Shown piece after piece: positions 19,792-35,108 of a stretch of 35,398 nucleotides of DNA; the first letter of the stretch is position 1, and every line of letters starts with the position of its first letter. The stretch is from Thermoplasmatales archaeon SW_10_69_26 (GTDB lineage: Archaea > Thermoplasmatota > SW-10-69-26): assembly GCA_003009755.1 (NCBI GenBank), contig PXUB01000039.1, positions 19,344 to 54,741 of the forward strand. The letters are read 5' to 3'. The position numbers and the translations under genes were made by a program. The notes under the pieces were generated by a model, which was not told the origin of the DNA, ran no database searches, and saw nothing but the letters and a program-made list of their open reading frames with translations.

Positions 19792-20355
19792 ATGGGACTC
19801 GAGCAGGTCATCGACGACATCCGAGAGGAAGGCGAGGCTGAGGTCGAGGCGATCCGTGCCGAGGCCGAGGAGGAAGCCCAAGCCATCCGCGAGGACGCCG
19901 AGAACCGAGCCCAGGAACGCAAGCAGGAGATCCTGGACGAGGCCGACGACGAAGCCGAGGCCGAGCGCCAGCGCATCGTCGCGAACGCTCAGCTGCAAGC
20001 CAAGAAGAAGCGGCTCAACGCCGAATCCGACGTCCTGTCGTCGGTGCGCTCCCGCGTCGAGTCCCGGTTGGCGAACCTCGACGAGGACGACCGCCGCGAG
20101 CTGATCGAAACCTACATCGAGGGGTCCGGCGCCGACGAGCTCGGCGACGGGGCCAAGGCCTGGGGTCGATCGGAGGACCAGGCCATCCTCGAGGATCTCG
20201 GCTTCACCTTCGAGGGCGAGATCGACTGCGTCGGCGGCACCGTGCTCGAGAGCCCGGAGGGCGACATCCGCGAGGATCTCCGGTTCGACGAGGTTCTCGA
20301 CGAGATCTGGCGCGAGGAGATCCACGAGATCGCCTCCGACCTCCTGGAGCGGTGA
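19792..20355 (+). CDS. atpE: A-type ATP synthase subunit E
   Basis: MGLEQVIDDI...IDCVGGTVLES; operon position. Confidence 0.92.
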   Translation: MGLEQVIDDIREEGEAEVEAIRAEAEEEAQAIREDAENRAQERKQEILDEADDEAEAERQRIVANAQLQAKKKRLNAESDVLSSVRSRVESRLANLDEDDRRELIETYIEGSGADELGDGAKAWGRSEDQAILEDLGFTFEGEIDCVGGTVLESPEGDIREDLRFDEVLDEIWREEIHEIASDLLER

Positions 20356-20357
20356 CG

Positions 20358-21419
20358 ATGTTCTCCGGAGTGGGCGAGTTGCTGGGCATGGGATCCTCGG
20401 GCGGCGGACGCTCGAACTACCCCTACGTGACCGCACGCGTGCGATCGATGAAGACCCACCTGTTGCCCGAGGAGGAATACGCACGGATGGTCGCTCGCGA
20501 CGTGCACGAGATCGCCCGCTCCCTGCAGGAGGGCCGCTACCAGGAGCAGATCGACCGGCTGTCCTCCGAGTACAGCGGTGCCCAGCTCATCGAGCAAGCG
20601 ACCTGGCAAGGCATGGGCAACGACTTCCAGCGCATCCTCGAGTGGTGCGAGGGCCCGCTCGAGGACATGGTGGCCCGCTACTTCGAGCGGTTCACCGTCT
20701 ACAACCTGAAGACCGCGCTCCGCGGCGCGCGAAGCGGCGCCACGTCCACGCAGTCCGAGCAAGCGCTCGTCCCCGTCGGCCTCGTCGCCCGCGACGACTG
20801 GCGAGCCGCGCTCAACGCGGACTCGCTGCCCGAAGCGATCGAGGCGCTGCGCACGCTCCCGTACGGGGACGTGATCCAGAACATGGACGAGGAGCCGTTG
20901 CCCGTCATCGAGAACGCGCTGGACCACGCCTACTACGACCGGTTGATCTCGTCGGTCGAGGCCGACGATCGGCCGCGCGAGGCCTACCTGACGTTCCTCC
21001 GCCGCGAGATCGACACCATCAACCTCAAGAACATCTTCCGCGCCAAACACGCGGGCATCGAAGAGTACGAGCACGTCGAGGGCGGCGAGGACGTCGACGA
21101 GGAGCTGGCCCGTCGCATCCTGCAAGCCGACTGGGAGGAGGTCTCCGCCATGCTCGACGAGACGGCCTACGGGGACGATCTCCGTCCGGCCGTCGAGGAC
21201 TACCGCGAGTCCGGTGACCTGAACCGGCTCGCCAACGAGCTCGAGACCCTGCACCTGGAGGAAGCCGACACCTTCGGCCACCGCTACCCGCTTTCCATCC
21301 TCCCGATCATCGACTACGTGCTCCGCAAAGAGCGAGAGGTCGACCGCCTGCGCATGATCGCGTTCGGCAAACAGGCCGGCCTCTCCCGAGACGAGATCGA
21401 ACAACTGGTAACGGACTGA
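20358..21419 (+). CDS. atpC: A-type ATP synthase subunit C
   Basis: NYPYVTARVRSMK, YNLKTALRG, EIDTINLK and KEREVDRLRMIA. The start could be 20352, 20358 or 20388. Confidence 0.92.
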   Translation: MFSGVGELLGMGSSGGGRSNYPYVTARVRSMKTHLLPEEEYARMVARDVHEIARSLQEGRYQEQIDRLSSEYSGAQLIEQATWQGMGNDFQRILEWCEGPLEDMVARYFERFTVYNLKTALRGARSGATSTQSEQALVPVGLVARDDWRAALNADSLPEAIEALRTLPYGDVIQNMDEEPLPVIENALDHAYYDRLISSVEADDRPREAYLTFLRREIDTINLKNIFRAKHAGIEEYEHVEGGEDVDEELARRILQADWEEVSAMLDETAYGDDLRPAVEDYRESGDLNRLANELETLHLEEADTFGHRYPLSILPIIDYVLRKEREVDRLRMIAFGKQAGLSRDEIEQLVTD

Positions 21420-21426
21420 GCCCACG

Positions 21427-21735
21427 ATGGACGAGAAACAACTGGCTGCGATCGGTCCCGAGGACTTCGTGCTCGGGTTCCAACTCGCGGGCGTCGAGGA
21501 GGCCCGGGAGACGACCCCGGCGTCCTACGAAGAGGACATCCAAGCCCTCCTCGACCATCCCGACGTGGGCATCATCATCGCGCGCCACGAGGACGTGGCG
21601 TCGCTTCCCGACAACGTACGGTCGGAGGTCACCGGTTCCGTGGACCCCGTCGTCATCCAGCTGGGTGGCGGAGCCGGCGAGGGCCTCCGAGAACAGATCC
21701 GATCAGCGATCGGTATCGACCTCATGGAAGAGTGA
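21427..21735 (+). CDS. atpF: A-type ATP synthase subunit F
   Basis: [17 protein letters not shown]...[13 protein letters not shown]. Confidence 0.93.
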
Positions 21736-21740
21736 TCCAC

Positions 21741-23501
21741 ATGGCCATGGCAGACCAACAGACCGAGTCCGGCGGCCGCATCACGCGCGTGGCTGGGCCC
21801 GTCGTGACCGCCGAAGGCCTCACCAGCGGCATGTACGACGTCGTGTACGTCGGCGAGGAGGAGCTGATGGGTGAGGTGATCGAGATCGACGGCGACAAGA
21901 CCCTCATCCAAGTGTACGAGGAGACGGGGGGCATCAAGCCCGGCGAACCCGTCGAGGAGACGCACCAGCCGCTCACCGTCGACCTCGCCCCCGGGCTCGT
22001 GTCGTCCGTGTACGACGGCATCCAGCGCCCGCTCGACACCCTGCGCGCCGAGATGGGCGACTTCATCGACCGCGGCGTCACCGCGCCCGGCGTCGATCTC
22101 GACAAGACGTGGGAGTTCAACCCCACCGTCAGCGAGGGCGACCCGGTCGAGGCTGGCGACGTGATCGGCAAGGTCCCCGAATCCCCGTCGATCACCCACC
22201 GCGTCATGGTCCCCCCGAACGTCGAGGGGACCGTCGCCGAGATCGAGCAAGGCGAGTTCACGGTCGAGGAGACCGTGTGCCGGCTCGAAGACGGCACCGA
22301 GATCCGGATGCGGCAGGAGTGGCCGGTCCGCGAGGCCCGTCCCTACGAGACCAAGCACCGCCCGACGGTGCCCCTCATCACCGGGCAGCGCATCCTGGAC
22401 ACCTTGTTCCCGATCGCCAAGGGCGGCACGGCCGCGATCCCGGGCCCGTTCGGCTCCGGGAAGACGGTCACCCAGCAGTCCCTGGCTAAGTGGAGCGACG
22501 CCGACCTCGTCGTCTACATCGGGTGCGGCGAGCGCGGCAACGAGATGACCGAGGTCCTCGAGGAGTTCCCCGAGCTCGAGGACCCGCAGACCGGTAACGC
22601 GCTGATGGACCGCACCGTCCTCATCGCGAACACCTCCAACATGCCGGTCGCGGCCCGCGAATCTTCGATTTACACAGGGATCACGATCGCCGAGTACTAC
22701 CGCGACATGGGGTACAGCGTGGCCCTCATGGCCGACTCCACGTCGCGGTGGGCCGAAGCGATGCGCGAGATCAGCTCCCGGCTCGAGGAGATGCCCGGCG
22801 AGGAGGGCTACCCGGCCTACCTGGCGGCCCGCCTGGCCGAGTTCTACGAGCGAGCTGGCCGCGTCGAGACGCTGAACGGCAAGGAAGGCTCCGTCACCGT
22901 GATCGGGGCCGTGTCCCCGCCCGGCGGTGACTTCTCCGAGCCGGTCACCCAGAACACGCTGCGCATCGTCAAGGTGTTCTGGGCCCTGGACAGCGACCTC
23001 GCCCAACGCCGGCACTTCCCGGCGATCAACTGGCTCGACAGCTACTCGCTGTACGAGTCCGACCTCGAAGGGTGGTTCGAGGACGAGGTCGACGAGGAGT
23101 GGGGCGACCTGCGCACGCAGATCATGGACATCCTGCAGGAGGAGTCCGAGCTGCAGGACATCGTGCAGCTCGTCGGATCCGACGCGCTGCCCGAGGACCA
23201 GCAGCTCACGCTCGAGGTTGCCCGCCTCATCCGTGAGGTGTTCCTCCAGCAGAACGCCTTCCACCCGGTCGAGACGTACAGCGCTCCCCAGAAGAGCTTC
23301 AAGATCCTCAAGGGCATCCAGCGGTTCAACGAGCTCGCGCGCGAGGCGCTCGACGAGGGCGTCCCCGTCGCCGAGATCAAGGACACCAGCGCGCCCGCCG
23401 AGCTCGCGCAGGCCCGCAACGAAGAGGACTTCGATCCGGTCTACGAGGACGTGATGCAGATGATGGAAGACGAGTTCGCGGAGCTCACGGAGGCGGTCTG
23501 A
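21741..23501 (+). CDS. atpA: A-type ATP synthase catalytic subunit A (no intein)
   Basis: [25 protein letters not shown] and [12 protein letters not shown]. Confidence 0.97.
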
Positions 23502-23502
23502 G

Positions 23503-24936
23503 ATGACGAAGGAGTACAAGACGGTCTCCGAGATCTCCGGCCCGCTCGTGTTCGTCGAACGAACCGAACCGGTCGGCTTCAACGAACTCGTCGAGATCAC
23601 CATGCCCAACGGCGACCGGCGCCGCGGGCAAGTGCTCGACACGAGCGAGGACTACGTCGCCGTGCAGGTGTTCGAGGGCACGACCGGCATCAACCGCGAT
23701 GCCTCGGTCAAGTTCCTCGGCGAAACCCTCAAGCTCCCGGTGAGCGAGGACCTGCTCGGCCGCATCCTCTCCGGCAGCGGCGACCCGCTCGACGGCGGTC
23801 CCGACGTCGTGCCCGAGGAACGGCTCGACATCGAGGGCGCCGCGATCAACCCGTGGGCCCGCGAGGAACCCAACGAGTGGATCCAAACCGGGATCAGCAC
23901 GATCGACGGCATGAACACGCTGGTCCGCGGTCAAAAGCTCCCGATCTTCTCGTCCAGCGGGCTCCCGCACAACGACATCGCGCTGCAGATCGCCCGCCAA
24001 GCCCAGGTGCGCGGCACCGACGAGGAGTTCGCCGTCGTGTTCTGCGCGATGGGCATCACGCACGAGGAGTCCTCGCAGTTCATGTCCCAGTTCGAGCAGA
24101 CCGGCGCCCTCGAGCGCGCGGTCGTGTTCCTCAACCTGGCCGACGACCCGGCCATCGAGCGCATGATCACCCCCCGGATGGCGCTCACCGCGGCCGAGTA
24201 CCTGGCCTACGAGCACGACTACCACGTGCTCGTGATCCTCACCGACATGACCAACTACTGCGAGTCGCTGCGCCAGATCGGCGCCGCTCGCGAAGAGGTC
24301 CCCGGTCGCCGCGGCTACCCCGGGTACATGTACACCGACCTGGCGATGCTCTACGAGCGCGCCGGCCGGATCGAGGGCCGCGATGGCACCATCACGCAGA
24401 TGCCGATCCTCACGATGCCGGGCGGCGACATCACGCACCCGATCCCGGACCTGACCGGGTACATCACCGAGGGCCAGCTCGTGGTCGATCGCGACCTCCA
24501 CCAGAAGGGCATCTACCCCCCGATCGACGTGCTGCCGTCCCTGTCCCGCCTGATGGAGGGCGGCATCGGGGAAGGCCTCACGCGCGAGGACCACGGCGGC
24601 GTCAGCGACCAGTGCTACGCCGCGTACGCTGAGGGCAAGGACCTGCGCGGCCTCGTCAACATCGTCGGCGAGGAGGCGCTCAGCGACCGCGACCAGGACT
24701 ACCTGGACTTCGCCGACGCCTTCGAGGACGAGTTCGTCCGCCAAGGCCGCGAAGAGGACCGCGCGATCGAGGAGACGCTCGGCATCGGCTGGGAGCTGCT
24801 CGCCAAGCTCGACACCGACGAGCTCAACCGCATCGACCGCGAGAACGTCGAGACCTACCACCCCGAGCTCGGATCCGCGTCCCCGGACGAGTCGGCCGCC
24901 GACGCGTCCGGCGAAGAGCTCGAGGCCGAGGCCTGA
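23503..24936 (+). CDS. atpB: A-type ATP synthase subunit B
   Basis: [23 protein letters not shown] and [15 protein letters not shown]. Confidence 0.97.
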
Positions 24937-24959
24937 CCCCCGACGCGAGGCTCTCCCCC

Positions 24960-25643
24960 ATGGACCCCAAGGACGTCAAACCGACCCGGATGAAGCTCCT
25001 CGAGCTCAAGGACCGCATCGAGCTCTCCGAGAAGGGCCACAACCTGCTCGAGATGAAACGCGACGGTCTCATCATCGAGTTCTTCGACCTGCTCGAGGAG
25101 GCCAAGGACGCCATGACGAAGCTCGAGGACAAGCACGAGGACGCCACCCGCGCCCTCGCCATCGCCCAAGCCGTCGAGGGCACCATCCCCGTGCGATCGG
25201 CGGCGCTGTCGCTCGAGAACAGCCCTCGCATCGAGATCGGGACGAAGAACATCATGGGCGTCGTCGTCCCGGAGATCGAGGGGGAGAGCGTGCACACCGA
25301 CGTCTCCGAACGCGGGTACGGCACGATCGGCACCTCGCCCCGCATCGACACGGCCGTCGACGCCTACGAGGACCTCGTCGACGCCATCATCGCGGCCGCG
25401 GAGGCCGAAACCGCTCTCCGCAAGCTCCTCGACGAGATCGAGAAGACCAAGCGCCGCGTGAACGCGCTGGAGTTCAAGGTCATCCCCGAGCTCGAGGAAG
25501 CCCGCGACTTCATCGAGTTCCGGCTCGAGGAGCAGGAGCGCGAGGAGACCTTCCGTCTCAAGAAGATCAAGGACAAGAAAGAAGAAGAGGAGAAGGCCGC
25601 CCGCGAAGAGGCGGCGCGCCGTCGCGAGGAAGCCGAGAGCTGA
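24960..25643 (+). CDS. atpD: A-type ATP synthase subunit D
   Basis: [16 protein letters not shown] and TKRRVNALE. Confidence 0.95.
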
Positions 25644-25654
25644 CCGTCCCCCTC

Positions 25655-25716
25655 GTCGTCGGCCGGGGCCGACGACCTCTCGTCTCCCTTGTTTTCCTTC
25701 CCCGTCTTCTTCCCCC
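25655..25716 (+). terminator. Probable atp operon terminator
   Basis: Inverted repeat GTCGTCGGCC/GGCCGACGAC (25655-25676) followed by a long pyrimidine tract containing TTGTTTTCCTT. Confidence 0.55.
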
Positions 25717-25807
25717 ACACCCCGCTCCGCGTCCAGCCAGACGGCTGAGGGGCGAACATCTGCTGGACAGGGAACCCCGATGAGGGGGCAGCGACTCTGG
25801 CTGAGGT

Positions 25808-26509
25808 ATGCGCGAGGGCCGAACCACGAGCGACACGGCGACGTGGAAGCGCGTAGCGAAGACCGCCGCCGGCGGGACGCTGGTCGCCTGGGGTCTGCGA
25901 CGCCGGACCGTGCCCGGCTACATCGCCGCCCTCACCGGCGGCGTGCTCGCCTACCGCGGGCTGCGAGGCGCGGACGTCGAGATCCACCTGGAGAACCTCG
26001 AGGCGCAGGCCCAAGCGGTCGACGTGGAGCGCTCGTTGACGATCGCGGCGCCCGCCGACGACGTGCGCGCCTTCCTGTCCGACCCCGACCGGTTGGACGA
26101 GGCTCTGGACGAGGTGGGCACGGTCGAGGCGCTCAGCGAGGCCCGCCAACGGTGGACGCTGCACAGCCCCACGGGGCACGCGCTCAGCTGGGATATGCGG
26201 CGCGAGGACATGGGCACCGAGGACGAGATGGAGTGGACGTCCACCGGCGATCTCGACGTGGGGATCACGCTCGCCCTCGAACCCACCGACGAGGACACGA
26301 CGGTGACCACGATGACGCTCACCGTCGAACCGCCTGGAGGCTCGATCGGTCAAGCGCTGACCGAACGCCTCGACGTCGTGCCCCAGGCCCTCGTCGCCGG
26401 GTTCCTGCAGCGGACCAAGACCCTCCTCGAGGGCGAGCACCGACGATCGGTGGGCGCCCTCGACACCGGGTCTCCGGCGACCGGTGCCGGGCCCGGGTCG
26501 ACGCACTGA
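25808..26509 (+). CDS. SRPBCC/polyketide-cyclase family protein with an N-terminal DUF2892-like membrane segment
   Basis: GGTLVAWGLRRR...LAYRGLRG; VERSLTIAAPADDVRAF; RWT...LSWD; PPGG; RTKTLLE. Confidence 0.75.
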   Translation: MREGRTTSDTATWKRVAKTAAGGTLVAWGLRRRTVPGYIAALTGGVLAYRGLRGADVEIHLENLEAQAQAVDVERSLTIAAPADDVRAFLSDPDRLDEALDEVGTVEALSEARQRWTLHSPTGHALSWDMRREDMGTEDEMEWTSTGDLDVGITLALEPTDEDTTVTTMTLTVEPPGGSIGQALTERLDVVPQALVAGFLQRTKTLLEGEHRRSVGALDTGSPATGAGPGSTH

Positions 26510-26559
26510 ACGTGTGACCTCGACCACGGGCTTTCCCCCCGCCGGTCCCCGTTGGCGTT

Positions 26560-27849
26560 GTGCGGCTGCTGCAGTTCCCCGCACCCGACGACCAGCGAGA
26601 CGACCTGTTGGGGGTGCTCGACGACGAGGACCTCGCCTACACCCTCAGCCAGGGCGCCGACGAGCAGGCCGGGACGACCCTCGTGACCACCGCCATGCCG
26701 GCCGACGCGGTCGAGGACGTGCTCGACGATCTCACCGAGGCCGGCCTGGACCCGGACGCGTTCACCGCATCCGTCGACGCCGAGTTCGTCCACTTCGACC
26801 AGGCCGACGAGGTGCAGAACCGTTGGAGCACGACGCCCAACCGCATCGCCCCCCGCACCCTGCGGTCGAAGGCCAAGGACCTGCGGCTCAACTCGCGCTC
26901 CTACGTGCGGATGATGGTCCTCAGCGCGATCGTCGCCACCGCCGGTCTCCTGTTGCGCTCCCCCGCGGTCGTGGTGGGCTCGATGGTGATCGCACCGATC
27001 GTGAGCCCGATGCTGACGGCCAGCGTGGGCGCCGTGCGCAACGACCGCGACATGCTCGTCCACAGCCTGCACCTGCAAGCTCTCGGGTTGGGCCTGGCGA
27101 TCGCGACGGCCGCGTCGACCGCCTGGCTCGTGCGGACCGGCGACGTCGTGGCCGGCGGGCTGGCCGTCGAGACGATGGGGTTGATCAGCTTGCGCATCTC
27201 GCCCAGCATGTTGGCGGTCGTCGTCGGCCTCTGCGCGGGCGCCGCCGGCGCCTTCGGCCTGGCCACGAAGGGCCAGGTGACGATCGTGGGCGTCATGATC
27301 GCGGCCGCGCTCATCCCGACCGCGGCCGCCGCCGGCATCGGGCTCGCCTGGGCGGATCCCGTCGTCGCGCTCGGGGCCACCCTGCTGCTCGTGTTGAGCC
27401 TCGTCACGGTCAACGTCGGCGCGACCGCGATGCTAGTCTACCTCGACTACCGCCCCGACGAGGTCGACGATCCCATCCTCTCGTTCGAGACCGCCGGGCA
27501 GGCCCTCACCGTGACGGCGACGCTGGGCCTGACCCTGCTGGCCGTCGTCGCCGTGGGCGTCCTCTTCGTCCAACAGAGCGGGTTCGAACGCGACGTGAAC
27601 CGAGCCGTCGGGGACGTGCTGGCCGAGGAGGCCTACGATGGCCTCGGCGTCGAGGCGCTCACCGTCGAGTACCGCACCCCGCTGTCGGCCGACCCCCCGA
27701 CCGTGACGGTCGAGATCGCCCGAGGGCAAGGCCCCGACCACCCGGCCCTGGCCGAGCGGTTGAGCGAAGCGATCGCCGAGCGCACCGGGCACGACGTGCG
27801 CGTCCAGGTCACGTTCGTCGACTACCAGCGATCGCCCCCGGGGAACTGA
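26560..27849 (+). CDS. TIGR00341/DUF389 family membrane protein
   Basis: MRLLQ start, SAIVATAGLL.SPAVVVGSMVIAP, GVMIAAALIP and multiple TM helices. Confidence 0.85.
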   Translation: MRLLQFPAPDDQRDDLLGVLDDEDLAYTLSQGADEQAGTTLVTTAMPADAVEDVLDDLTEAGLDPDAFTASVDAEFVHFDQADEVQNRWSTTPNRIAPRTLRSKAKDLRLNSRSYVRMMVLSAIVATAGLLLRSPAVVVGSMVIAPIVSPMLTASVGAVRNDRDMLVHSLHLQALGLGLAIATAASTAWLVRTGDVVAGGLAVETMGLISLRISPSMLAVVVGLCAGAAGAFGLATKGQVTIVGVMIAAALIPTAAAAGIGLAWADPVVALGATLLLVLSLVTVNVGATAMLVYLDYRPDEVDDPILSFETAGQALTVTATLGLTLLAVVAVGVLFVQQSGFERDVNRAVGDVLAEEAYDGLGVEALTVEYRTPLSADPPTVTVEIARGQGPDHPALAERLSEAIAERTGHDVRVQVTFVDYQRSPPGN

Positions 27850-28025
27850 GCGGTGGGCTGGGTCCGCTGGGTGTTGCTGGAGGGCGGCCCCACCCGGTTG
27901 GTCGCGCTCGTGGTCGGGCTCGCGTTCGTGGCGCTGCTGGTGGCTCGTTCCTCTCCCGACCCAGGTGAGCCCGAACGACGTCCCTCAACACCAACGCCCA
28001 TGCCCATCCAAGACCATGGGGACCC

Positions 28026-29825
28026 ATGGCCGAGGGCTCGCGGGCCGGGACCAAGGATCGCTACGTCGCCGTCGTCGACCAGGACAAGGTCACCGACGAG
28101 GTCCGCGACATCGCGCTCAAGTACGACCCGTTGAACCAGACGCCCGGCGAGCAGGGGTTCCACGTCACCGAGGACGGCCAGCTGCACATCGAGGACCACA
28201 AGGTCATCGAGGAGCACCGGATCGTCCAGAACAAGATCCCCAACGACGCGATCGAGATCCTCCGCCTGCCCGCCGAACGCGGCGAGCTCGTGCACCAGTA
28301 CGGCCCCAACGGGTTCCGCCTGTACGAGCTGGCGGCCCCGGTGGAGGACCGCGTCGTCGGCTTGCTGGGCCCCAACGGGGTCGGCAAGTCCTCGGCCCTG
28401 CGCATCCTCGACGGCTCCCTGCAGCCCAACCTCGGCCGGATCGAGGACCCCCCGGCGTGGGCCGAGATCGTGCAGCGGTTCCGTGGCACCGCCGCCCAGC
28501 GCTACTTGGAGAAGCTCGAAGCCGGCGAGGTGTCCACCGCCTACAAGCCCCAGCGCGTGGATCGCATCCCCGAGCACCACGGGGGCACGCCCGAGCAACT
28601 GCTCGCCCGCCGGGACGAGCGCGGCCGCCGAGAGCAAGCCCTCGAGGCGCTGGAGCTCGAGCACGTCGCCGACCGCCGGGTCGACGAGCTGTCCGGCGGC
28701 GAGCTGCAGCGGTTGGCGATCGCGGCCACGCTCGTGGCCGACGTCGACACCTACCTCGTCGACGAGCCCAGCTCCTACCTCGACGTCGGGCAGCGGTTGA
28801 CGATGGCCCGCGGCCTGGCCGAGCTGGCCGCCGACCGCGAGGTCATCGTCGTCGACCACGACCTCGTCACCCTCGACGTGCTCGCCGACCAGCTGCACGT
28901 GGTCTACGGCCAGCCCGGCGGGTTCGGCGTCGTCTCCCGGCCCCTGTCGGCTCGGCGAGGCATCAACCAGTTCCTGTCGGGTCGGCTCGAGGACGAGGAG
29001 ATCCGCATCCGGGAACAGGCGATCACGTTCCGCGAGGACCCAGCCCGCCGGGCCCGCGAGGGCGACCCGGTTGTGAGGGTCCCCTCGCTGACCAAGCGCT
29101 TCGACGGGTTCGAGCTCACCGTCGACCCGGGCACGATCCACGCCGGCGAGGTCGTCGCCGTGCTCGGCCGCAACGGGCTCGGCAAGACCACCTTCGCCCG
29201 CCTGCTGGCGGGGGCCTTGTCCCCGGACGAGGGCACCATCGAGGAGGAGGTCGCGATCGCCTACAAGCCCCAGTACCTCGACCCCGGCTTCGAGGGCACC
29301 GTCGGCACGTTGCTGGCCAGCCAGGTGGACGTCGAGGCCGCCGGCTTCCAGGCCGACATCCGCGGCCCCTTCGACCTCGATCCGCTCTGGGACGAACCCG
29401 TGCCCTCCCTCTCCGGCGGCGAACGCCAGCGCGTCGCCGTCGCGCTCGCGCTCGCCCGCGAAGCAGACGCCTACCTGCTGGACGAGCCCTCGGCCTACCT
29501 CGACGTCGAACGCCGCATGGCGCTGGCCGGCCGCCTGCGGCGCTTCGCCAGCCAACGCTCGACGCCCTGCCTGGTGATCGACCACGATCTGTCGCTGCTC
29601 GACGCCGTGGCCGACCGCGTCATGGTGTTCGAGGGCGATCCCGGTCGCCGCGGGCACGGGCGTTCACCCGAGCCCGTCCGGGAGGGCCTCGATCGGTTCC
29701 TGGCCTCGGTGGACGTGACCGTCCGCAAGGACGCCCGCACCGGTCGGCCCCGGGCCAACGATCCCGGCTCGCGCAAGGACCGCCAGCAGCGCGAGGCTGG
29801 GGAGTACTTCGCCAGCGAGGCCTAG
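28026..29825 (+). CDS. rli: ABCE1/Rli ribosome-recycling ATPase paralogue lacking Fe-S cysteines
   Basis: HQYGPNGFRLY; NBD1 motifs GPNGVGKS, LSGGELQR, DEPSSYLD and DHD; NBD2 motifs GRNGLGKT, LSGGERQR, DEPSAYLD and DHD; hinge TGRPRAN; C-terminal DRQQREAGEYF. Confidence 0.9.
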   Translation: MAEGSRAGTKDRYVAVVDQDKVTDEVRDIALKYDPLNQTPGEQGFHVTEDGQLHIEDHKVIEEHRIVQNKIPNDAIEILRLPAERGELVHQYGPNGFRLYELAAPVEDRVVGLLGPNGVGKSSALRILDGSLQPNLGRIEDPPAWAEIVQRFRGTAAQRYLEKLEAGEVSTAYKPQRVDRIPEHHGGTPEQLLARRDERGRREQALEALELEHVADRRVDELSGGELQRLAIAATLVADVDTYLVDEPSSYLDVGQRLTMARGLAELAADREVIVVDHDLVTLDVLADQLHVVYGQPGGFGVVSRPLSARRGINQFLSGRLEDEEIRIREQAITFREDPARRAREGDPVVRVPSLTKRFDGFELTVDPGTIHAGEVVAVLGRNGLGKTTFARLLAGALSPDEGTIEEEVAIAYKPQYLDPGFEGTVGTLLASQVDVEAAGFQADIRGPFDLDPLWDEPVPSLSGGERQRVAVALALAREADAYLLDEPSAYLDVERRMALAGRLRRFASQRSTPCLVIDHDLSLLDAVADRVMVFEGDPGRRGHGRSPEPVREGLDRFLASVDVTVRKDARTGRPRANDPGSRKDRQQREAGEYFASEA

Positions 29826-31062: not shown

Positions 31063-33081
31063 TTAAGGCTTGCGGGCTCGCACCACCCACGCGGCCCCGA
31101 ACAGGAGGCAGAGGAGGGCGAGCGCGCTCGGGCCGGGGGTTTCGGCCGCCTGGTCCCCCGTGGCCGCTCCGTCGGTGGGCCGGATCGGTTCCAGCTTCGA
31201 GGGCTCGGCGTCGGGCGCGTCCTCGGTGTCGAGCTGGTCCTCGGTGGGCAGATCCACCGTGGCGGTCGACCCGGGGGTGGCCTCGGTTTCCGTGGCGCCC
31301 TCGTCCGTCGTCTCGGCCTCGTCCTCGCCGGCCTCGTCCTGGGTCGTCTCGTTGGTGTAGGTGAACTGGCCCAGGTTCAGGGCGTCGACCTGCACGGAGA
31401 GCGGTTGCCGACCCGCGTCGACGGGCACGGTCAGGTTGCTCGTGGCCGTACCTGCGGCCGGCACCTCGAGGCCGCGGGCGGCGCCGGGTTCACCGTCCAC
31501 CAGACCCAGCAGGGTCGCCGGTCGGGGGATCGGGCTCGGGTTGGTGACGTCGACCGTGATCCGTGCCTGTTCGCCGGTGGATGCCACGTCGACGGGGTCG
31601 ACGGTGAGGGGGTCGGTGCCCTCCTCGATCGTCCAACCGTCGACGGTGATCGCGCGCGTCACGACGTGGCCGTCGGCGCGATGGATCGACAGCGGGTGGG
31701 TGCCCTCGTCCGGCAGATCGGTGACCAGCGTCCCGTTGGCGTCGGTGAACCCCTGCGAGCGGTCGTCGAGGTAGACGGCCGCGTCGGACAGCGGGCGATC
31801 GCGGCCGTCGGTGAGGGTCCAGTGGACCTCGGGACCATCGTGCACGGCGGCGTGGACGCCGGCGGTCGCATGGATCGCGACCGGCTGGTCCGTGCGGGCC
31901 AGCGAGACCCGGGCCTCGCCAGGGTCCTCGTCGGCGAGGTCGATCGTCCAGCCGGTCTCGTGGCCTCGGACGTCGGCCGTGGCGCCGGTCACGGTCGGCG
32001 AGAGGGCGCGCAGACGGTCGGGGCCGGTCAGGTCGACGCGGAGGGAGGCCGAGCCTTCGGCCACGTGCAGCGGGTGGATGGCCAACGTGGGATCACCGAC
32101 GGTGATCTGGGCGGGCAGATCGATCCAGCGGTCGCCCCCGGCCGGCTGCACGCTGATCCGGTGGGTGCCCAGCGGGAGGTCGTCGAGCGTGTCGGCGGGC
32201 ACGCGGGCCCGGCCCTCGCGGACCGGGACCGAGGGGCTGGCGGCCCCGTCGGCGCCCCTCAGACGCAGGGTGCCCTGTGCGGGCGCCCCATCGCGCGTGA
32301 CGTTGACCTCGAGCGGGCCCTGGTCCAGACCTCGGAACCAGGTCGACCGGTCCATGGAGGCCTCGAGCCCGATCAACCGGACGCTGGGCATGGTGCCGGC
32401 GTTGTCGGTGGTTCCCTCGCGCACGTACAGGTAGTAGGTGCCGGGCTCGAGCGAGGCGTCCGAGCGCAGCAGGGTCGTGTTGTCGCGGGCCTGGACCTCG
32501 CCGGCGGTATCCGAGGGCGGCGTGTAGGCACGCATCGGTAACCCTCGGACGTCGAGGTAGCCTTGGCGGATCTGGGAGGCGGCGTCCTCGTCGACGAGAT
32601 AGGCTTGGACATCATCGTCGCCCTCGATCTGGGCGGAGACCTCGATCTCGTCGCCGGCGTACACCTCGTCGTCGGCGACGGCGACGGCCATCTGGCCGCC
32701 GGCCGCCTTGTCGGTATCGCCAACCCCGCCGACACCGCCCGTCATCATGAACCCGTACACGGCCAGGCCTGCGACCAGGGCGGCCACGAGCGCGCTCGCC
32801 AAGGCCAGGTAGAACCGGGTCCGCTGGGGGTTGAGCAAGCGCTTGCCGCGACCGGTGAGGTGGTAGTAGACCCACAACCGGTCGTCCTCCTGGCGTTCGA
32901 CCAGGCCGACCTCGGTCAGCTTGTCCAGGTGCTCGTGCACGGTCGCCTTGCCCAGATCGAGCTCCCGCGAGAGCTCGGTCACCGTCATGCGCTGGTCCTG
33001 GAGCAGGGAGAGGATGTCCCTGCGGGTGTCGGCGGCCAGCACCTTGATCAGATCCGGTTCGAGCGGGAGCTCCTCGGGCAT
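31063..33081 (-). CDS. ArsR-type winged-HTH protein with a TM helix, large extracellular beta-rich region and PGF-CTERM-like sorting tail (672 aa)
   Basis: HTH: IKVLAADTRRDILSLL...TVTELSRELDLGKATVHEHLDKLTEVGLV...WVYYHLTGRG. TM: FYLALASALVAALVAGLAVYGF. Several N-x-T sequons, an acidic T/E linker, and tail ETPGPSALALLCLLFGAAWVVRARKP. Confidence 0.85.
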   Translation of the reverse strand: MPEELPLEPDLIKVLAADTRRDILSLLQDQRMTVTELSRELDLGKATVHEHLDKLTEVGLVERQEDDRLWVYYHLTGRGKRLLNPQRTRFYLALASALVAALVAGLAVYGFMMTGGVGGVGDTDKAAGGQMAVAVADDEVYAGDEIEVSAQIEGDDDVQAYLVDEDAASQIRQGYLDVRGLPMRAYTPPSDTAGEVQARDNTTLLRSDASLEPGTYYLYVREGTTDNAGTMPSVRLIGLEASMDRSTWFRGLDQGPLEVNVTRDGAPAQGTLRLRGADGAASPSVPVREGRARVPADTLDDLPLGTHRISVQPAGGDRWIDLPAQITVGDPTLAIHPLHVAEGSASLRVDLTGPDRLRALSPTVTGATADVRGHETGWTIDLADEDPGEARVSLARTDQPVAIHATAGVHAAVHDGPEVHWTLTDGRDRPLSDAAVYLDDRSQGFTDANGTLVTDLPDEGTHPLSIHRADGHVVTRAITVDGWTIEEGTDPLTVDPVDVASTGEQARITVDVTNPSPIPRPATLLGLVDGEPGAARGLEVPAAGTATSNLTVPVDAGRQPLSVQVDALNLGQFTYTNETTQDEAGEDEAETTDEGATETEATPGSTATVDLPTEDQLDTEDAPDAEPSKLEPIRPTDGAATGDQAAETPGPSALALLCLLFGAAWVVRARKP

Positions 33082-33143
33082 CCGTGCACCTATCCGACGG
33101 TGTCCATACCTACCGGCCCGTCCTACAAATACGTCTGGGGGGT

Positions 33144-33161
33144 GTTCGGTGGGCACCGAAC
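33144..33161. promoter_or_regulatory. Candidate operator: perfect 8-2-8 palindrome in the divergent intergenic region
   Basis: GTTCGGTG-GG-CACCGAAC, 12 nt downstream of the AT-rich TACAAATA box (33124-33131). Confidence 0.5.
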
Positions 33162-33173
33162 GCCGGAGCCCAC

Positions 33174-35108
33174 CTGCCGCGGGCGGCCGGTGGTTCCCGA
33201 GGTTGGGCATCGATCGCGATCGTCGTGGCCTTGCTGGCCGGCGGCCCGGCAGGATCGGCCTTGGCCGACCACGTCGACCACGAGCGCGAAGACGAATGGC
33301 ACATCACGCACACCGTGAACGCCACCGTCGTCGACAACTACGCGACCGTACGTGTCGGCGTGGAGATCGTGAACGAAGGCCCCGATCCCGAGTTCCCGTT
33401 CCGGGTCGACCTACCCGAGGACGCCTACGTGACCGGGCTCACGGTGACACGTGACGGGAAGACCTACGAGGCCGACATCCAGGCCGCCGAGGAGGCTCGC
33501 GAACGGTACGAGCAGGCTCGCGAGGAGCATCGGTCGGCGGGCCTGGTCGAGGAGGCCGACGAGGGCGTGTATGCGTACAACATCAACGTGGAAGGCACTG
33601 AGACGGTGCAAGCGACGCTGACCTACGAGCGCTACGTGACCGCCGACGGCGGGGTCTACGAGCTCGGCCTGAGAGCACCGGCCACGCAACGCGGGATCGA
33701 CGAGGGCGCCACGATCGAAGCCCACGTCCAGCACCGGGCGGGGCTGGAGACCTTGCAGGCCGCCCCCGAGGCCGAGATCACCCGCTCGGGTGACTCAGGG
33801 CACGTCGTCCGCCACGTCGACCCTCGCGGCCAAGACGAAGCCAGCGACCTCCGCGTCCGGTACGAGCTGGCCCAGACGCCGCCTGGGGGCGCGATCGAGG
33901 CCGCCGTCGAGGATGGGACCGGGTACTTCGCGCACCGGTTCCGAGCCTCCGAGACGATGGACCGCGTCCCGGTGGACGTCGCCCTCGTGCTCGACACCAG
34001 CGGCTCGATGACGGGGGACAAGATCGCCCAGCTCGAGCAGGCCACGCGTCGCCTCGTCGACGACCTGGAACCCCGCGACCGGCTGGCGTTGACCTTCTTC
34101 GCCGACGACACCGATCGGCCCTGGGAGGGGTTCGCGTCCGTCGATGCGAACACGACCGACCGTGCCTTCGACGCCCTCGAGCGGATGCGCGCCACCGGGT
34201 CCACGAACATCGAGCAGGCGATCGCTGACGGCTTCGCGCCCCTCGGCGATCTCGAGACCTCCGTCGAACGCTTGCCCGTCGTCGTGTTCCTCACCGACGG
34301 CCGCCCGACGACGGGGGTCACCGGCGAACACCAGCTGCGCACCGCGGCCCTCGAGGCCAACGACGCCGGCGCCCACGTCTTCTCCCTGGCGTTCGGTGCC
34401 GACGCCGACTGGGGTCTCGTGCACGGGCTCGCCCAGGACGGCGAGGGCCTGGCCCGCCACGTCCAGGGCAGCGATCACGCGGAGGTCGAGCTCGGCTCGT
34501 TCCTGACCGCGCTCACCACGCCCGTCCTCACCGACGTCCAGCTCGACCACACCCACGCCGAGGAGACCTGGCGCGTGGGCGCCCCGGTCCTGTTCGCCGG
34601 TGGCGAGCTGTTGTACGTCGGCACCTTCGACCCCAACCGGACCACGCTCGAGGCGCAGGTGACGGCCCGCGATGACCAGGGCCGGCGCTCGTGGAACGTC
34701 TCCGAGGCCGTCGAGGAGACCAACGCCAGCTACCTGCCGGATCTGGTCGCCTACCAGCGCATCCAGGCGCTCGAGGCCCAGATCCAAGCCGAGGGCGGCA
34801 ACGCGACGCTGGAGGAGCGAGCGCTCGAGCTCGCGCTCGAACACGGGTTCGTGACCGACCAAACGAGCCTCGTCGTCGACCTGCCCGCCTCGTCCAACGA
34901 GGAACCCGAGCCACAGACGCCCGACCACGAGCCCACGGACGCAGCCGATGCGACACGAGGGGCCCAGCCCGCGGATCGATCAGCCACGGATGGAGCCGAC
35001 GAGCCCACCGAGGCCGATGAACAGCCCGCCCAAACCCCCGGTGTCGGTGCAGCCCTCGCGGTGGCCCTGCTCGCCATCGGAGCCGCGGTCGCGCGATCGC
35101 GGCCGTGA
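33174..35108 (+). CDS. Secreted VIT + vWA domain surface protein with a PGF-CTERM-like tail
   Basis: Signal peptide ending SALA; VIT motifs (LPEDAYVTGL, EEARERYEQA, SAGLVE); vWA MIDAS LDTSGSM, GSTNI, FLTDG; ITIH-like LALEHGFVTDQTSLVV; tail QTPGVGAALAVALLAIGAAVARSRP. The start is uncertain (CTG 33174 preferred). Confidence 0.85.
   Translation: MPRAAGGSRGWASIAIVVALLAGGPAGSALADHVDHEREDEWHITHTVNATVVDNYATVRVGVEIVNEGPDPEFPFRVDLPEDAYVTGLTVTRDGKTYEADIQAAEEARERYEQAREEHRSAGLVEEADEGVYAYNINVEGTETVQATLTYERYVTADGGVYELGLRAPATQRGIDEGATIEAHVQHRAGLETLQAAPEAEITRSGDSGHVVRHVDPRGQDEASDLRVRYELAQTPPGGAIEAAVEDGTGYFAHRFRASETMDRVPVDVALVLDTSGSMTGDKIAQLEQATRRLVDDLEPRDRLALTFFADDTDRPWEGFASVDANTTDRAFDALERMRATGSTNIEQAIADGFAPLGDLETSVERLPVVVFLTDGRPTTGVTGEHQLRTAALEANDAGAHVFSLAFGADADWGLVHGLAQDGEGLARHVQGSDHAEVELGSFLTALTTPVLTDVQLDHTHAEETWRVGAPVLFAGGELLYVGTFDPNRTTLEAQVTARDDQGRRSWNVSEAVEETNASYLPDLVAYQRIQALEAQIQAEGGNATLEERALELALEHGFVTDQTSLVVDLPASSNEEPEPQTPDHEPTDAADATRGAQPADRSATDGADEPTEADEQPAQTPGVGAALAVALLAIGAAVARSRP

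Follow-up and report, generated by a model that had tools for sequence, protein, structure and literature searches.

The window analysed here is a stretch of 35,398 nucleotides from Thermoplasmatales archaeon SW_10_69_26 (contig PXUB01000039.1, positions 19,344 to 54,741), and it contains a complete gene for a paralogue of ABCE1/Rli whose N-terminal domain, the head, is free of cysteine. In canonical ABCE1 eight conserved Cys residues of this domain bind two [4Fe-4S] clusters. The protein scores 679.1 bits against the NCBIfam RLI equivalog NF009945 ('ribosome biogenesis/translation initiation ATPase RLI', cut-off 469 bits), with its residues 14–597 covering profile positions 4–590 of 592. Its top match among solved structures is Pyrococcus abyssi ABCE1 (3bk7; 523 bits, residues 12–595, continuous through the helix-loop-helix (HLH) insert and the hinge), followed by the ABCE1 structures of yeast, human and Sulfolobus. 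Pfam recognises two ABC_tran domains, and there is no Pfam match in the protein to the RLI N-terminal family (PF04068) or to Fer4. An assignment to the ABC-F factors (EttA and others), which are marked by a linker between the two nucleotide-binding domains (NBDs) that interacts with P-site tRNA and by the lack of both an N-terminal head and the ABCE hinge, was rejected; ABC-F models score far under their cut-offs (156 vs 380 and 131 vs 807), and EttA structures trail every ABCE1 entry in the fold matches (E 1e-23 vs 1e-61). The G+C content is ∼70% across the whole window and is no different in the three-gene insertion that holds this gene (Table 1).

An earlier note on this DNA, made from the sequence alone, had described an ABCE1 whose Fe-S domain keeps its scaffold without any Cys, with both ATPase sites and the hinge intact. 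Both parts of this description are borne out. The Walker A, Q-loop, signature, Walker B/Glu and H-loop motifs of ABCE1 are found in both NBDs (residues 115–123, 173–178, 222–229, 242–250 and 275–280 in NBD1; 381–389, 413–418, 462–469, 482–490 and 517–522 in NBD2), and the hinge 2 residues T565, R567, D569, R574, P575, R576, N578, P580, S582 and D585 are invariant across 24 Cys-free proteins and the canonical copy of the same genome. The head can be aligned, position for position, with the Fe-S domain of that canonical copy and of the solved ABCE1 structures, and its eight ligand columns are occupied by V22, V26, A30, D34, I61, H64, V67 and I71 (VVADIHVI), although a one-residue deletion leaves positions 23–30 ambiguous by one. 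Six of the former ligands are now Val, Ala or Ile, and two are Asp and His. The sole Cys of the protein is residue 515, outside the N-domain, and residues 1–514 have none; with no cysteine ligands in the head, [4Fe-4S] clusters are impossible. Among the window protein and its 120 best relatives, taken as the best 120 among 5.8 billion proteins and 50–97% identical to it, the N-domain contains no Cys in 119 of 121 and one Cys in the other 2, so that its absence is not due to chance or sequencing error. None of the 120 relatives carries a precomputed Pfam match to RLI or Fer4.

Simple decay of the head, for which the note had named an N-domain unconserved among Cys-less homologues as the sign, is excluded, since the head is the best-conserved region of the protein. 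Cys-free heads fall into two subfamilies, here called halo-type, to which the window protein belongs, and nano-type. Mean pairwise identity in the halo-type family is 75.4% for the head compared with 57–62% for the NBDs and hinges (134 rows, protein and locus copies not de-duplicated), and in the nano-type family 80% compared with 67–74% elsewhere (142 rows). Identity to canonical proteins is 24–25% in the head and 46–50% in the NBDs. The ratio dN/dS for the head, estimated by the Nei-Gojobori method (NG86), is 0–0.07. In all 11 pairs for which dS could be estimated it lies below the value for the remaining protein, and dN of the head is the smaller one in all 17 pairs; dS is often close to saturation in these pairs, just one of which is halo-type. 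These comparisons argue strongly that the Cys-free head is under strong purifying selection.

Table 1. Coordinates of the features described (window positions unless a genome and contig are given)
Feature	Position	Strand	Basis or remarks
Complete Cys-free ABCE1/Rli paralogue gene	28026..29825	+	599 aa plus stop; open reading frame and RLI equivalog, full length
Cys-free N-domain (residues 13–82), homologous to the 2x[4Fe-4S] domain	28062..28271	+	Alignment, AlphaFold2 (AF2) model
Cantilever linker and conserved HQYG.NGFRLY segment, head-NBD1 junction	28272..28343	+	75% mean identity in family
NBD1 Walker A (GPNGVGKSS)	28368..28394	+	
NBD1 ABCE-specific HLH insert	28452..28517	+	W145, F152, R153, G154 conserved
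ABC signature 1 (LSGGELQR)	28689..28712	+	
NBD1 Walker B and catalytic Glu (D246 E247)	28749..28775	+	
H-loop 1 (H278)	28848..28865	+	
NBD2 Walker A (GRNGLGKTT)	29166..29192	+	
ABC signature 2 (LSGGERQR)	29409..29432	+	
NBD2 Walker B and catalytic Glu (D486 E487)	29469..29495	+	
H-loop 2 (H520)	29574..29591	+	
Hinge 2 (TVRKD..GRPRANDPGSRKD)	29718..29780	+	
Three-gene insertion, ∼4.2 kb, between atpD and DSBA-like gene	25650..29825	.	Comparison with sister genome G005
SRPBCC protein gene, in insertion	25808-26509		
DUF389 membrane protein gene, in insertion	26560-27849		
ABCE1 loci predicted to encode one cluster (L086-L088)	G477:C1:1175014-1176765; G500:C40:8300-10054; G740:C5:4143-5906		G740 also has Cys 7

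Modelling suggests that the fold of the head has survived the loss of its ligands. An AF2 model of residues 8–106, built on 41 cluster-deficient heads, has a mean pLDDT of 79.4, and blocks of ten residues over model residues 11–70 average 83–93. When this model was compared with the PDB using Foldseek, ranks 1–11 were all Fe-S heads of ABCE1 from archaea, yeast and mammals (TMq 0.56–0.67, probability 1.00, E 1.6e-3 to 1.8e-2), and no match in the PDB reached E <1e-3; small ferredoxins superimpose with TMt 0.64–0.72 and an rmsd of 2.3–2.6 Å. A profile of the same 41 heads matches S. solfataricus ABCE1 (6tmf_d) with E 6.8e-16. The Cys-free head is thus predicted to retain the ABCE1/ferredoxin fold, and the hydrophobic side chains at six of the eight ligand positions fit a hydrophobic core in place of the clusters. 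The first 18 fold matches of a full-length AF2 model are likewise ABCE1 entries (E 1e-48 to 1e-61), with the domain arrangement in that model (pLDDT 78, pTM 0.47) too uncertain to use. The head was not found in other architectures: a search of the 75-residue N-domain against 1.84 billion representatives gave 15 matches, all of them ABCE-length proteins or short fragments.

In a table of ligand-column patterns for 417 aligned rows, the pattern CCCCCCCC accounts for 136 rows, the nano-type IAVDMHAY and its variants for 144, the halo-type VVAD[MI]H[IV]I and its variants for 135, and CCCDTHCC for 2. The two kinds of Cys-free head have the Asp and the His in common and differ at five other positions. 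These two residues, D34 (formerly Cys 4) and H64 (formerly Cys 6) in the window protein, are invariant in 41 of 41 cluster-deficient heads, including a set of intermediate forms found in four genomes with a single RLI match each: G440, from the Nanohaloarchaeota, and three Halobacteria-class genomes of ∼2 Mb, G477, G500 and G740. Heads from all four keep Cys 1, 2, 3 and 8, and in two of them Cys 7 as well; at positions 4 and 6 they have the Asp and the His of the Cys-free forms. By ferredoxin topology Cys 1–3 and Cys 8 would bind one cluster and Cys 4–7 the other, and the ABCE1 proteins of G477, G500 and G740 are accordingly predicted to carry one cluster. One of the two ABCE1 clusters is described as ferredoxin-like and the other as ABCE1-specific (PMC8153317).

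Evidence that bears on function comes from the Nanohaloarchaeota, where the cluster-deficient form is usually the only ABCE1. Our sample comprised 70 genomes of this phylum, that of Candidatus (Ca.) Nanohalalkaliarchaeum, with Ca. Nanohalobium, Nanosalina and Nanohalococcus as named relatives. An RLI match at E <= 1e-60 is present in 53 of the 70, 52 of which have exactly one and the remaining one two contig-end pieces; the scores range from 456 to 776 bits, none falling in the canonical range of ∼890–950, and several matches lie on contigs of 0.4–0.8 Mb or more. Thirty heads were read, and 28 have no Cys, that of G406 is canonical and that of G440 has five. The cluster-deficient head profile matches 56 of the 70 genomes (54 at 127–174 bits, G440 at 147 and G406 at 91), and in 55 of these 56 the cluster-deficient form is the only ABCE1; the head-profile search found no genome with both kinds of head among the 70. 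The halo-type subfamily of the window protein is itself the sole ABCE1 in five nanohaloarchaeal genomes (G402, G419, G420, G422 and G423), which means that it can carry the whole function. ABCE1 is essential in Haloferax volcanii according to unpublished results quoted in PMC3828320, and reviews report it as essential in eukaryotes and archaea, so a sole cluster-deficient copy must do the job.

Two other accounts of the nanohaloarchaeal proteins were considered. No stand-alone Fe-S head that could be supplied in trans was found, each genome having a single N-domain match if fragments at contig ends are set aside. Nor does loss of Fe-S biogenesis explain the missing clusters, because SufB/D (PF01458) is present in 57 of the 70 genomes. 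As a separate observation, 14 of the 70 (G407-G417, G438, G443 and G459) lack both an RLI match at 1e-60 and a head match, and four of these, 1.1–1.3 Mb in size, have no RLI match even at 1e-25; a SufB/D match is absent from 8 of the 11 genomes G407-G417. These 14 are either very incomplete metagenome-assembled genomes (MAGs) or a lineage without recognisable ABCE1.

Trees were built from the NBD and hinge columns only, with the head excluded, using IQ-TREE in its 'quick' mode under LG+C20 PMSF with SH-aLRT support only. A 71-row tree, from which 45 rows had been removed as near-duplicates or long branches, separates 22 canonical rows, drawn from DPANN, Bathyarchaeia and the like, Halobacteria and the window's own class, from 49 cluster-deficient rows with a support of 99. 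Within the latter, the three one-cluster rows from the haloarchaeal class are sister (99) to the nano-type clade, with G440 in a basal polytomy there, and a second branch (support 82) consists of the halo-type proteins. Two copies from its own family and one metagenomic protein join the window protein in a group (97), which lies inside a clade of 12 rows (100) that includes Natronosalvus, Natronococcus, Halocatena and Halomarina. Nanohaloarchaeal halo-type proteins are the neighbours of this clade (99), and a second haloarchaeal clade (100) lies deeper. The terminal branch of the window protein is 0.16, compared with a median of 0.18. The same picture was obtained from a 113-row tree, which included three long-branch rows that were later removed. 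On the simplest reading, one ancestor lost the ferredoxin-type cluster, and loss of the second cluster followed on at least two occasions. The halo-type gene would have moved between Nanohaloarchaeota and Halobacteria, and then from Halobacteria to the lineage of the window.

In the window's own genome ABCE1 departs from its usual status as a single-copy core gene. In the assembly (2.82 Mb in 49 contigs, 95% complete, 2.19% estimated contamination) two loci exceed the RLI cut-off: the window gene, at 678.8 bits, and a gene on contig 34, at 892.7 bits. The latter settles the question, left by the earlier note, of whether a canonical Cys-containing ABCE1 is also present: it has all eight Cys, and the two proteins are 47% identical. 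The window gene belongs to a three-gene insertion (Table 1). In the sister genome G005 atpB and atpD are followed directly by the DSBA-like gene, which has the opposite orientation, and then by an ArsR-like gene, and G005's own Cys-free ABCE1 is located on another contig. Of the other two genes of the insertion, one encodes the DUF389 protein, which shares 41% identity (269 bits) with a homologue in Halocatena compared with 26–30% (50–73 bits) for family genomes, the Halocatena homologue lying 6.7 kb from the Cys-free ABCE1 on the same contig; the other encodes the SRPBCC protein, which has a match only in a haloarchaeon among five genomes tested. A search for repeats or att sites at the flanks of the insertion turned up only chance-like short matches and the internal NBD1/NBD2 repeat. 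Since the window copy is nested among haloarchaeal copies and the insertion is absent from G005, we conclude that the gene was acquired horizontally. The contig itself is native: its AtpB is 81–85% identical to that of same-family genomes and 72% to that of Halobacteria, which together with the shared order atpB-atpD...DSBA...ArsR-like in G005 rules out contamination of the MAG or a mis-binned haloarchaeal contig.

The surroundings of the insertion give no hint of a partner. By Pfam, the ten window neighbours of the ABCE1 gene are unrelated genes, no conserved operon partner of Cys-free ABCE1 was seen in seven loci inspected by eye, and a search of the window's genome for a second aRF1/Pelota-like partner returned one eRF1_2 match only. 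Genes of an A-type ATP synthase operon (window 20352-25643) lie directly upstream of the insertion and encode a C/AC39 subunit, a catalytic alpha/beta-family subunit (23503-24936, called AtpB here) and subunit D. A 705-codon frame on the minus strand (21525-23642) overlaps this region, has no Pfam match and is probably a non-coding shadow frame of high-G+C DNA. Further along, the ArsR-like gene (31063-33210, minus strand), syntenic in G005, encodes a 715-residue protein with an ArsR-type helix-turn-helix followed by a long region that looks non-cytoplasmic, and it adjoins a VIT-VWA protein gene (33084-35108, plus strand).

Beyond the Nanohaloarchaeota the Cys-free form is patchy. In the window's own phylum the head occurs in 3 of 401 sampled genomes, namely the window's genome and two of the same family; within the class, 20 of 21 genomes have ABCE1 and these three alone have the extra copy. 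Similar second copies in some haloarchaea had been mentioned in the earlier note, and they do exist: among 301 sampled genomes of Halobacteria, the class of Halocatena, 15 have the Cys-free family (11 strong matches, one 82-codon fragment and three at 41% identity). All six of the Halobacteria checked for both kinds have a canonical copy (928–954 bits) and one or two Cys-free ones, and Cys-free genes were found at ten places in all on eight megaplasmids of haloarchaea, which measure 183 kb to 1.0 Mb. Natrinema zhouii carries two of them on one plasmid (NZ_CP084882.1, 508 kb; L041, L048, L051), giving, with the chromosomal canonical gene, three ABCE1-like genes per cell, and Haloarcula sinaiiensis ATCC 33800 has one Cys-free copy on each of two plasmids. 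The 82-codon frame, in a haloarchaeal genome (G551:C7:32747-32875), matches the first 44 residues of the head only, at 60% identity, and may be a remnant of a lost Cys-free copy. Near-identical DNA, defined as at least half of the gene's sampled 31-letter words, occurs in halite metagenome runs of two studies, and the window may itself derive from one of these studies.

Contacts of the head with the ribosome can be compared with those in the 30S post-splitting complex of S. solfataricus as described by Nurenberg-Goloub et al. (2020, PMC7196836), in which R2, K15, N17, E19 and K59 of ABCE1 touch ribosomal RNA (rRNA), P25, R28 and S29 touch uS12, and I68 and N70 lie in the cantilever; the same paper gives hinge 2 a role in 30S binding. 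Positions kept in the head of the window protein are P25 (P35, which is invariant), K59 (K70) and I68 (I78), and the family consensus ('DPLNRSG') has R/S or R/A at the equivalents of R28 and S29. Among the residues that stand in place of changed contacts, Y13, E25 and R27 are invariant in the family. Judged from the alignment, the interface between head and ribosome is partly kept and partly remodelled, and the invariance of the hinge 2 residues implies that the ribosome anchor of the body is intact.

We consider it probable that the gene encodes a working ABCE1 with a folded, cluster-free head, kept in this genome as an accessory copy. Like canonical ABCE1, the twin-ATPase would bind the small ribosomal subunit and would split or recycle ribosomes with aRF1 or aPelota. 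Its wedge-like head would fold without [4Fe-4S] clusters, with the Val, Val, Ala, Ile, Val and Ile side chains filling the cluster space and the invariant Asp-His pair placed at former ligands 4 and 6. The lineage would have arisen stepwise from canonical ABCE1, by loss first of the ferredoxin-type cluster, which left the intermediates with Cys 1, 2, 3 and 8, and then of the second cluster, at least twice. The cluster-free form would thereby have become the only ABCE1 in most Nanohaloarchaeota, spreading horizontally to some Halobacteria and from these to the window's halophilic Thermoplasmata-like lineage, where it would serve beside the canonical gene. The earlier note had proposed an iron-independent ribosome-splitting factor, and this idea gains strong indirect support from the 55 of 56 Nanohaloarchaeota genomes with an N-domain match in which a cluster-deficient form is the only ABCE1. 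The benefit of a spare copy would be independence from Fe-S supply and from oxidative damage to the clusters, a rationale suggested by work describing the clusters of Rli1 as a prime target of reactive oxygen species in yeast (PMC3442406). As a whole that note is upheld in part; nothing in it anticipated the horizontal origin, the lineages with a cluster-deficient form as sole copy or the intermediates with one cluster.

Several points weigh against this interpretation. The canonical copy in the same genome means that the paralogue need not do an essential job. The uS12-contact pair of the window protein is Q38/T39 rather than R/S, and contacts to rRNA and in the cantilever are changed (R2 to Y13, K15 to E25, N17 to R27 and N70 to R80). 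In 26 of the 54 nanohaloarchaeal genomes the head is taken to be Cys-free on the strength of its profile score, and many of the genomes in this phylum are MAGs whose completeness is unknown. The trees, finally, are quick and unrooted and carry flags for compositional heterogeneity, so that the direction of transfer is a deduction. One rival reading is a neofunctionalised paralogue that acts beside canonical ABCE1 as a regulator, for instance bound to 30S in anti-association or hibernation or on special stalled ribosomes, and that no longer splits ribosomes. Its accessory and patchy occurrence, often on megaplasmids, and the exchange of rRNA-contacting residues for family-invariant ones would suit such a role, which we nevertheless regard as unlikely because the same subfamily is the sole ABCE1 in five nanohaloarchaeal genomes, the ATPase and hinge motifs are all intact, and neither an extra aRF1/Pelota-like partner nor a conserved operon partner is apparent. 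Very improbable, by comparison, is a decaying duplicate or an artefact of assembly or binning. The closest named relatives are Halobacteria and the assembly is fragmented with some estimated contamination, but the open frame is full length, the terminal branch ordinary and the N-domain strongly constrained; AtpB and the synteny with G005 mark the contig as native, and two other genomes of the family carry the paralogue.

A further proposal, compatible with a working cluster-free ABCE1, is that the head has a mononuclear metal site (Zn, Fe or Mn) formed by Asp34, His64 and acidic or His residues near them. The invariance of D34 and H64 in all 41 cluster-deficient N-domains is what such a site would require, and by ferredoxin topology ligands 4 and 6 should be neighbours that belonged to the same lost cluster. 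These are, however, just two invariant polar residues at former ligand positions, the other six being Val, Ala, Ile, Met or Tyr; H54, E62 and E63 vary between the two subfamilies, and a hydrogen-bonded Asp-His pair explains the conservation equally well. The suggestion of another metal, also made in the earlier note, is therefore a weak one, and we think a metal site in this head doubtful. Returning to the working, cluster-free ABCE1, we lean, with less assurance than for the window gene itself, towards a wider conclusion: that the two [4Fe-4S] clusters of ABCE1 are naturally dispensable. Nanohaloarchaeota and a small haloarchaeal lineage would recycle ribosomes with a cluster-poor or cluster-free form that evolved stepwise, the ferredoxin-type cluster being lost first and the ABCE1-type cluster independently in two sublineages, and that was passed to host Halobacteria and to halophilic Thermoplasmata-like archaea as an oxidation- and iron-proof spare.

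The Fe-S head of ABCE1 is widely cited as a reason why Fe-S biogenesis cannot be lost, and engineered ABCE1 without the Fe-S domain is not known to split ribosomes. The head is described as essential, and its clusters as conserved, in PMC7196836, PMC8153317 and PMC6088178. No description of a cluster-free archaeal ABCE1 was found in the full-text literature searched, a body that leaves supplements and subscription journals outside its coverage, and public annotation labels the Cys-free proteins plain 'RLI'. A natural, strongly conserved Cys-free head makes it directly testable why a mechanical wedge needs two redox-inert clusters; dozens of genomes have such a form as their sole ABCE1, and intermediates with one cluster still exist. 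It also offers a plausible route by which aerobic, light-exposed halophiles could shield translation from oxidative or iron stress, and a clean example of the transfer of a core translation factor from one phylum of archaea to another, apparently between symbionts and hosts.

Comparison with known systems places the window protein closest to canonical ABCE1, also known as Rli1 or RNase L inhibitor (3bk7, 6tmf, 5ll6). It has the same length and the same order of parts, namely head, cantilever, NBD1 with HLH, hinge 1, NBD2 and hinge 2, and reaches 43% identity with P. abyssi ABCE1 when the folds are aligned; unlike canonical ABCE1, it has no Cys ligands, its head-rRNA contacts are partly replaced, and it is a second, horizontally acquired copy. 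The engineered headless constructs (1yqt, 3ozx and 5yv5), clusterless bodies that align to residues 85–596 of the window protein, lack the entire head, whereas the natural protein retains one that is conserved and predicted to be folded.

Parallels also exist outside the ABCE1 family. In archaeal RNA polymerase subunit D (Rpo3) and in subunit 3 of plant Pol IV/V, a ferredoxin-like domain carries a 4Fe-4S cluster in some lineages and not in others, so that here, too, a structural Fe-S domain of an information-processing machine can be kept without its cluster. Chains of these subunits occur among the fold matches of the head model (ranks 20–40, TMq 0.35–0.48); the protein context is unrelated, and the relation to the ABCE1 head is at the level of the fold only. 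Cys-minus (C-) paralogues of zinc-ribbon ribosomal proteins (L31, L36, S14 and others) serve when zinc is scarce. The Cys-free ABCE1 resembles them as a translation protein in which all metal-binding Cys residues are replaced while fold and, as proposed here, role persist, and which is accessory beside a metal-binding copy. The C- paralogues are bacterial, Zur-regulated and relieved of one Zn, whereas in ABCE1 two Fe-S clusters are replaced and, unlike in the ribosomal proteins, the metal-free form appears to have fully displaced the metal-binding one in one phylum.

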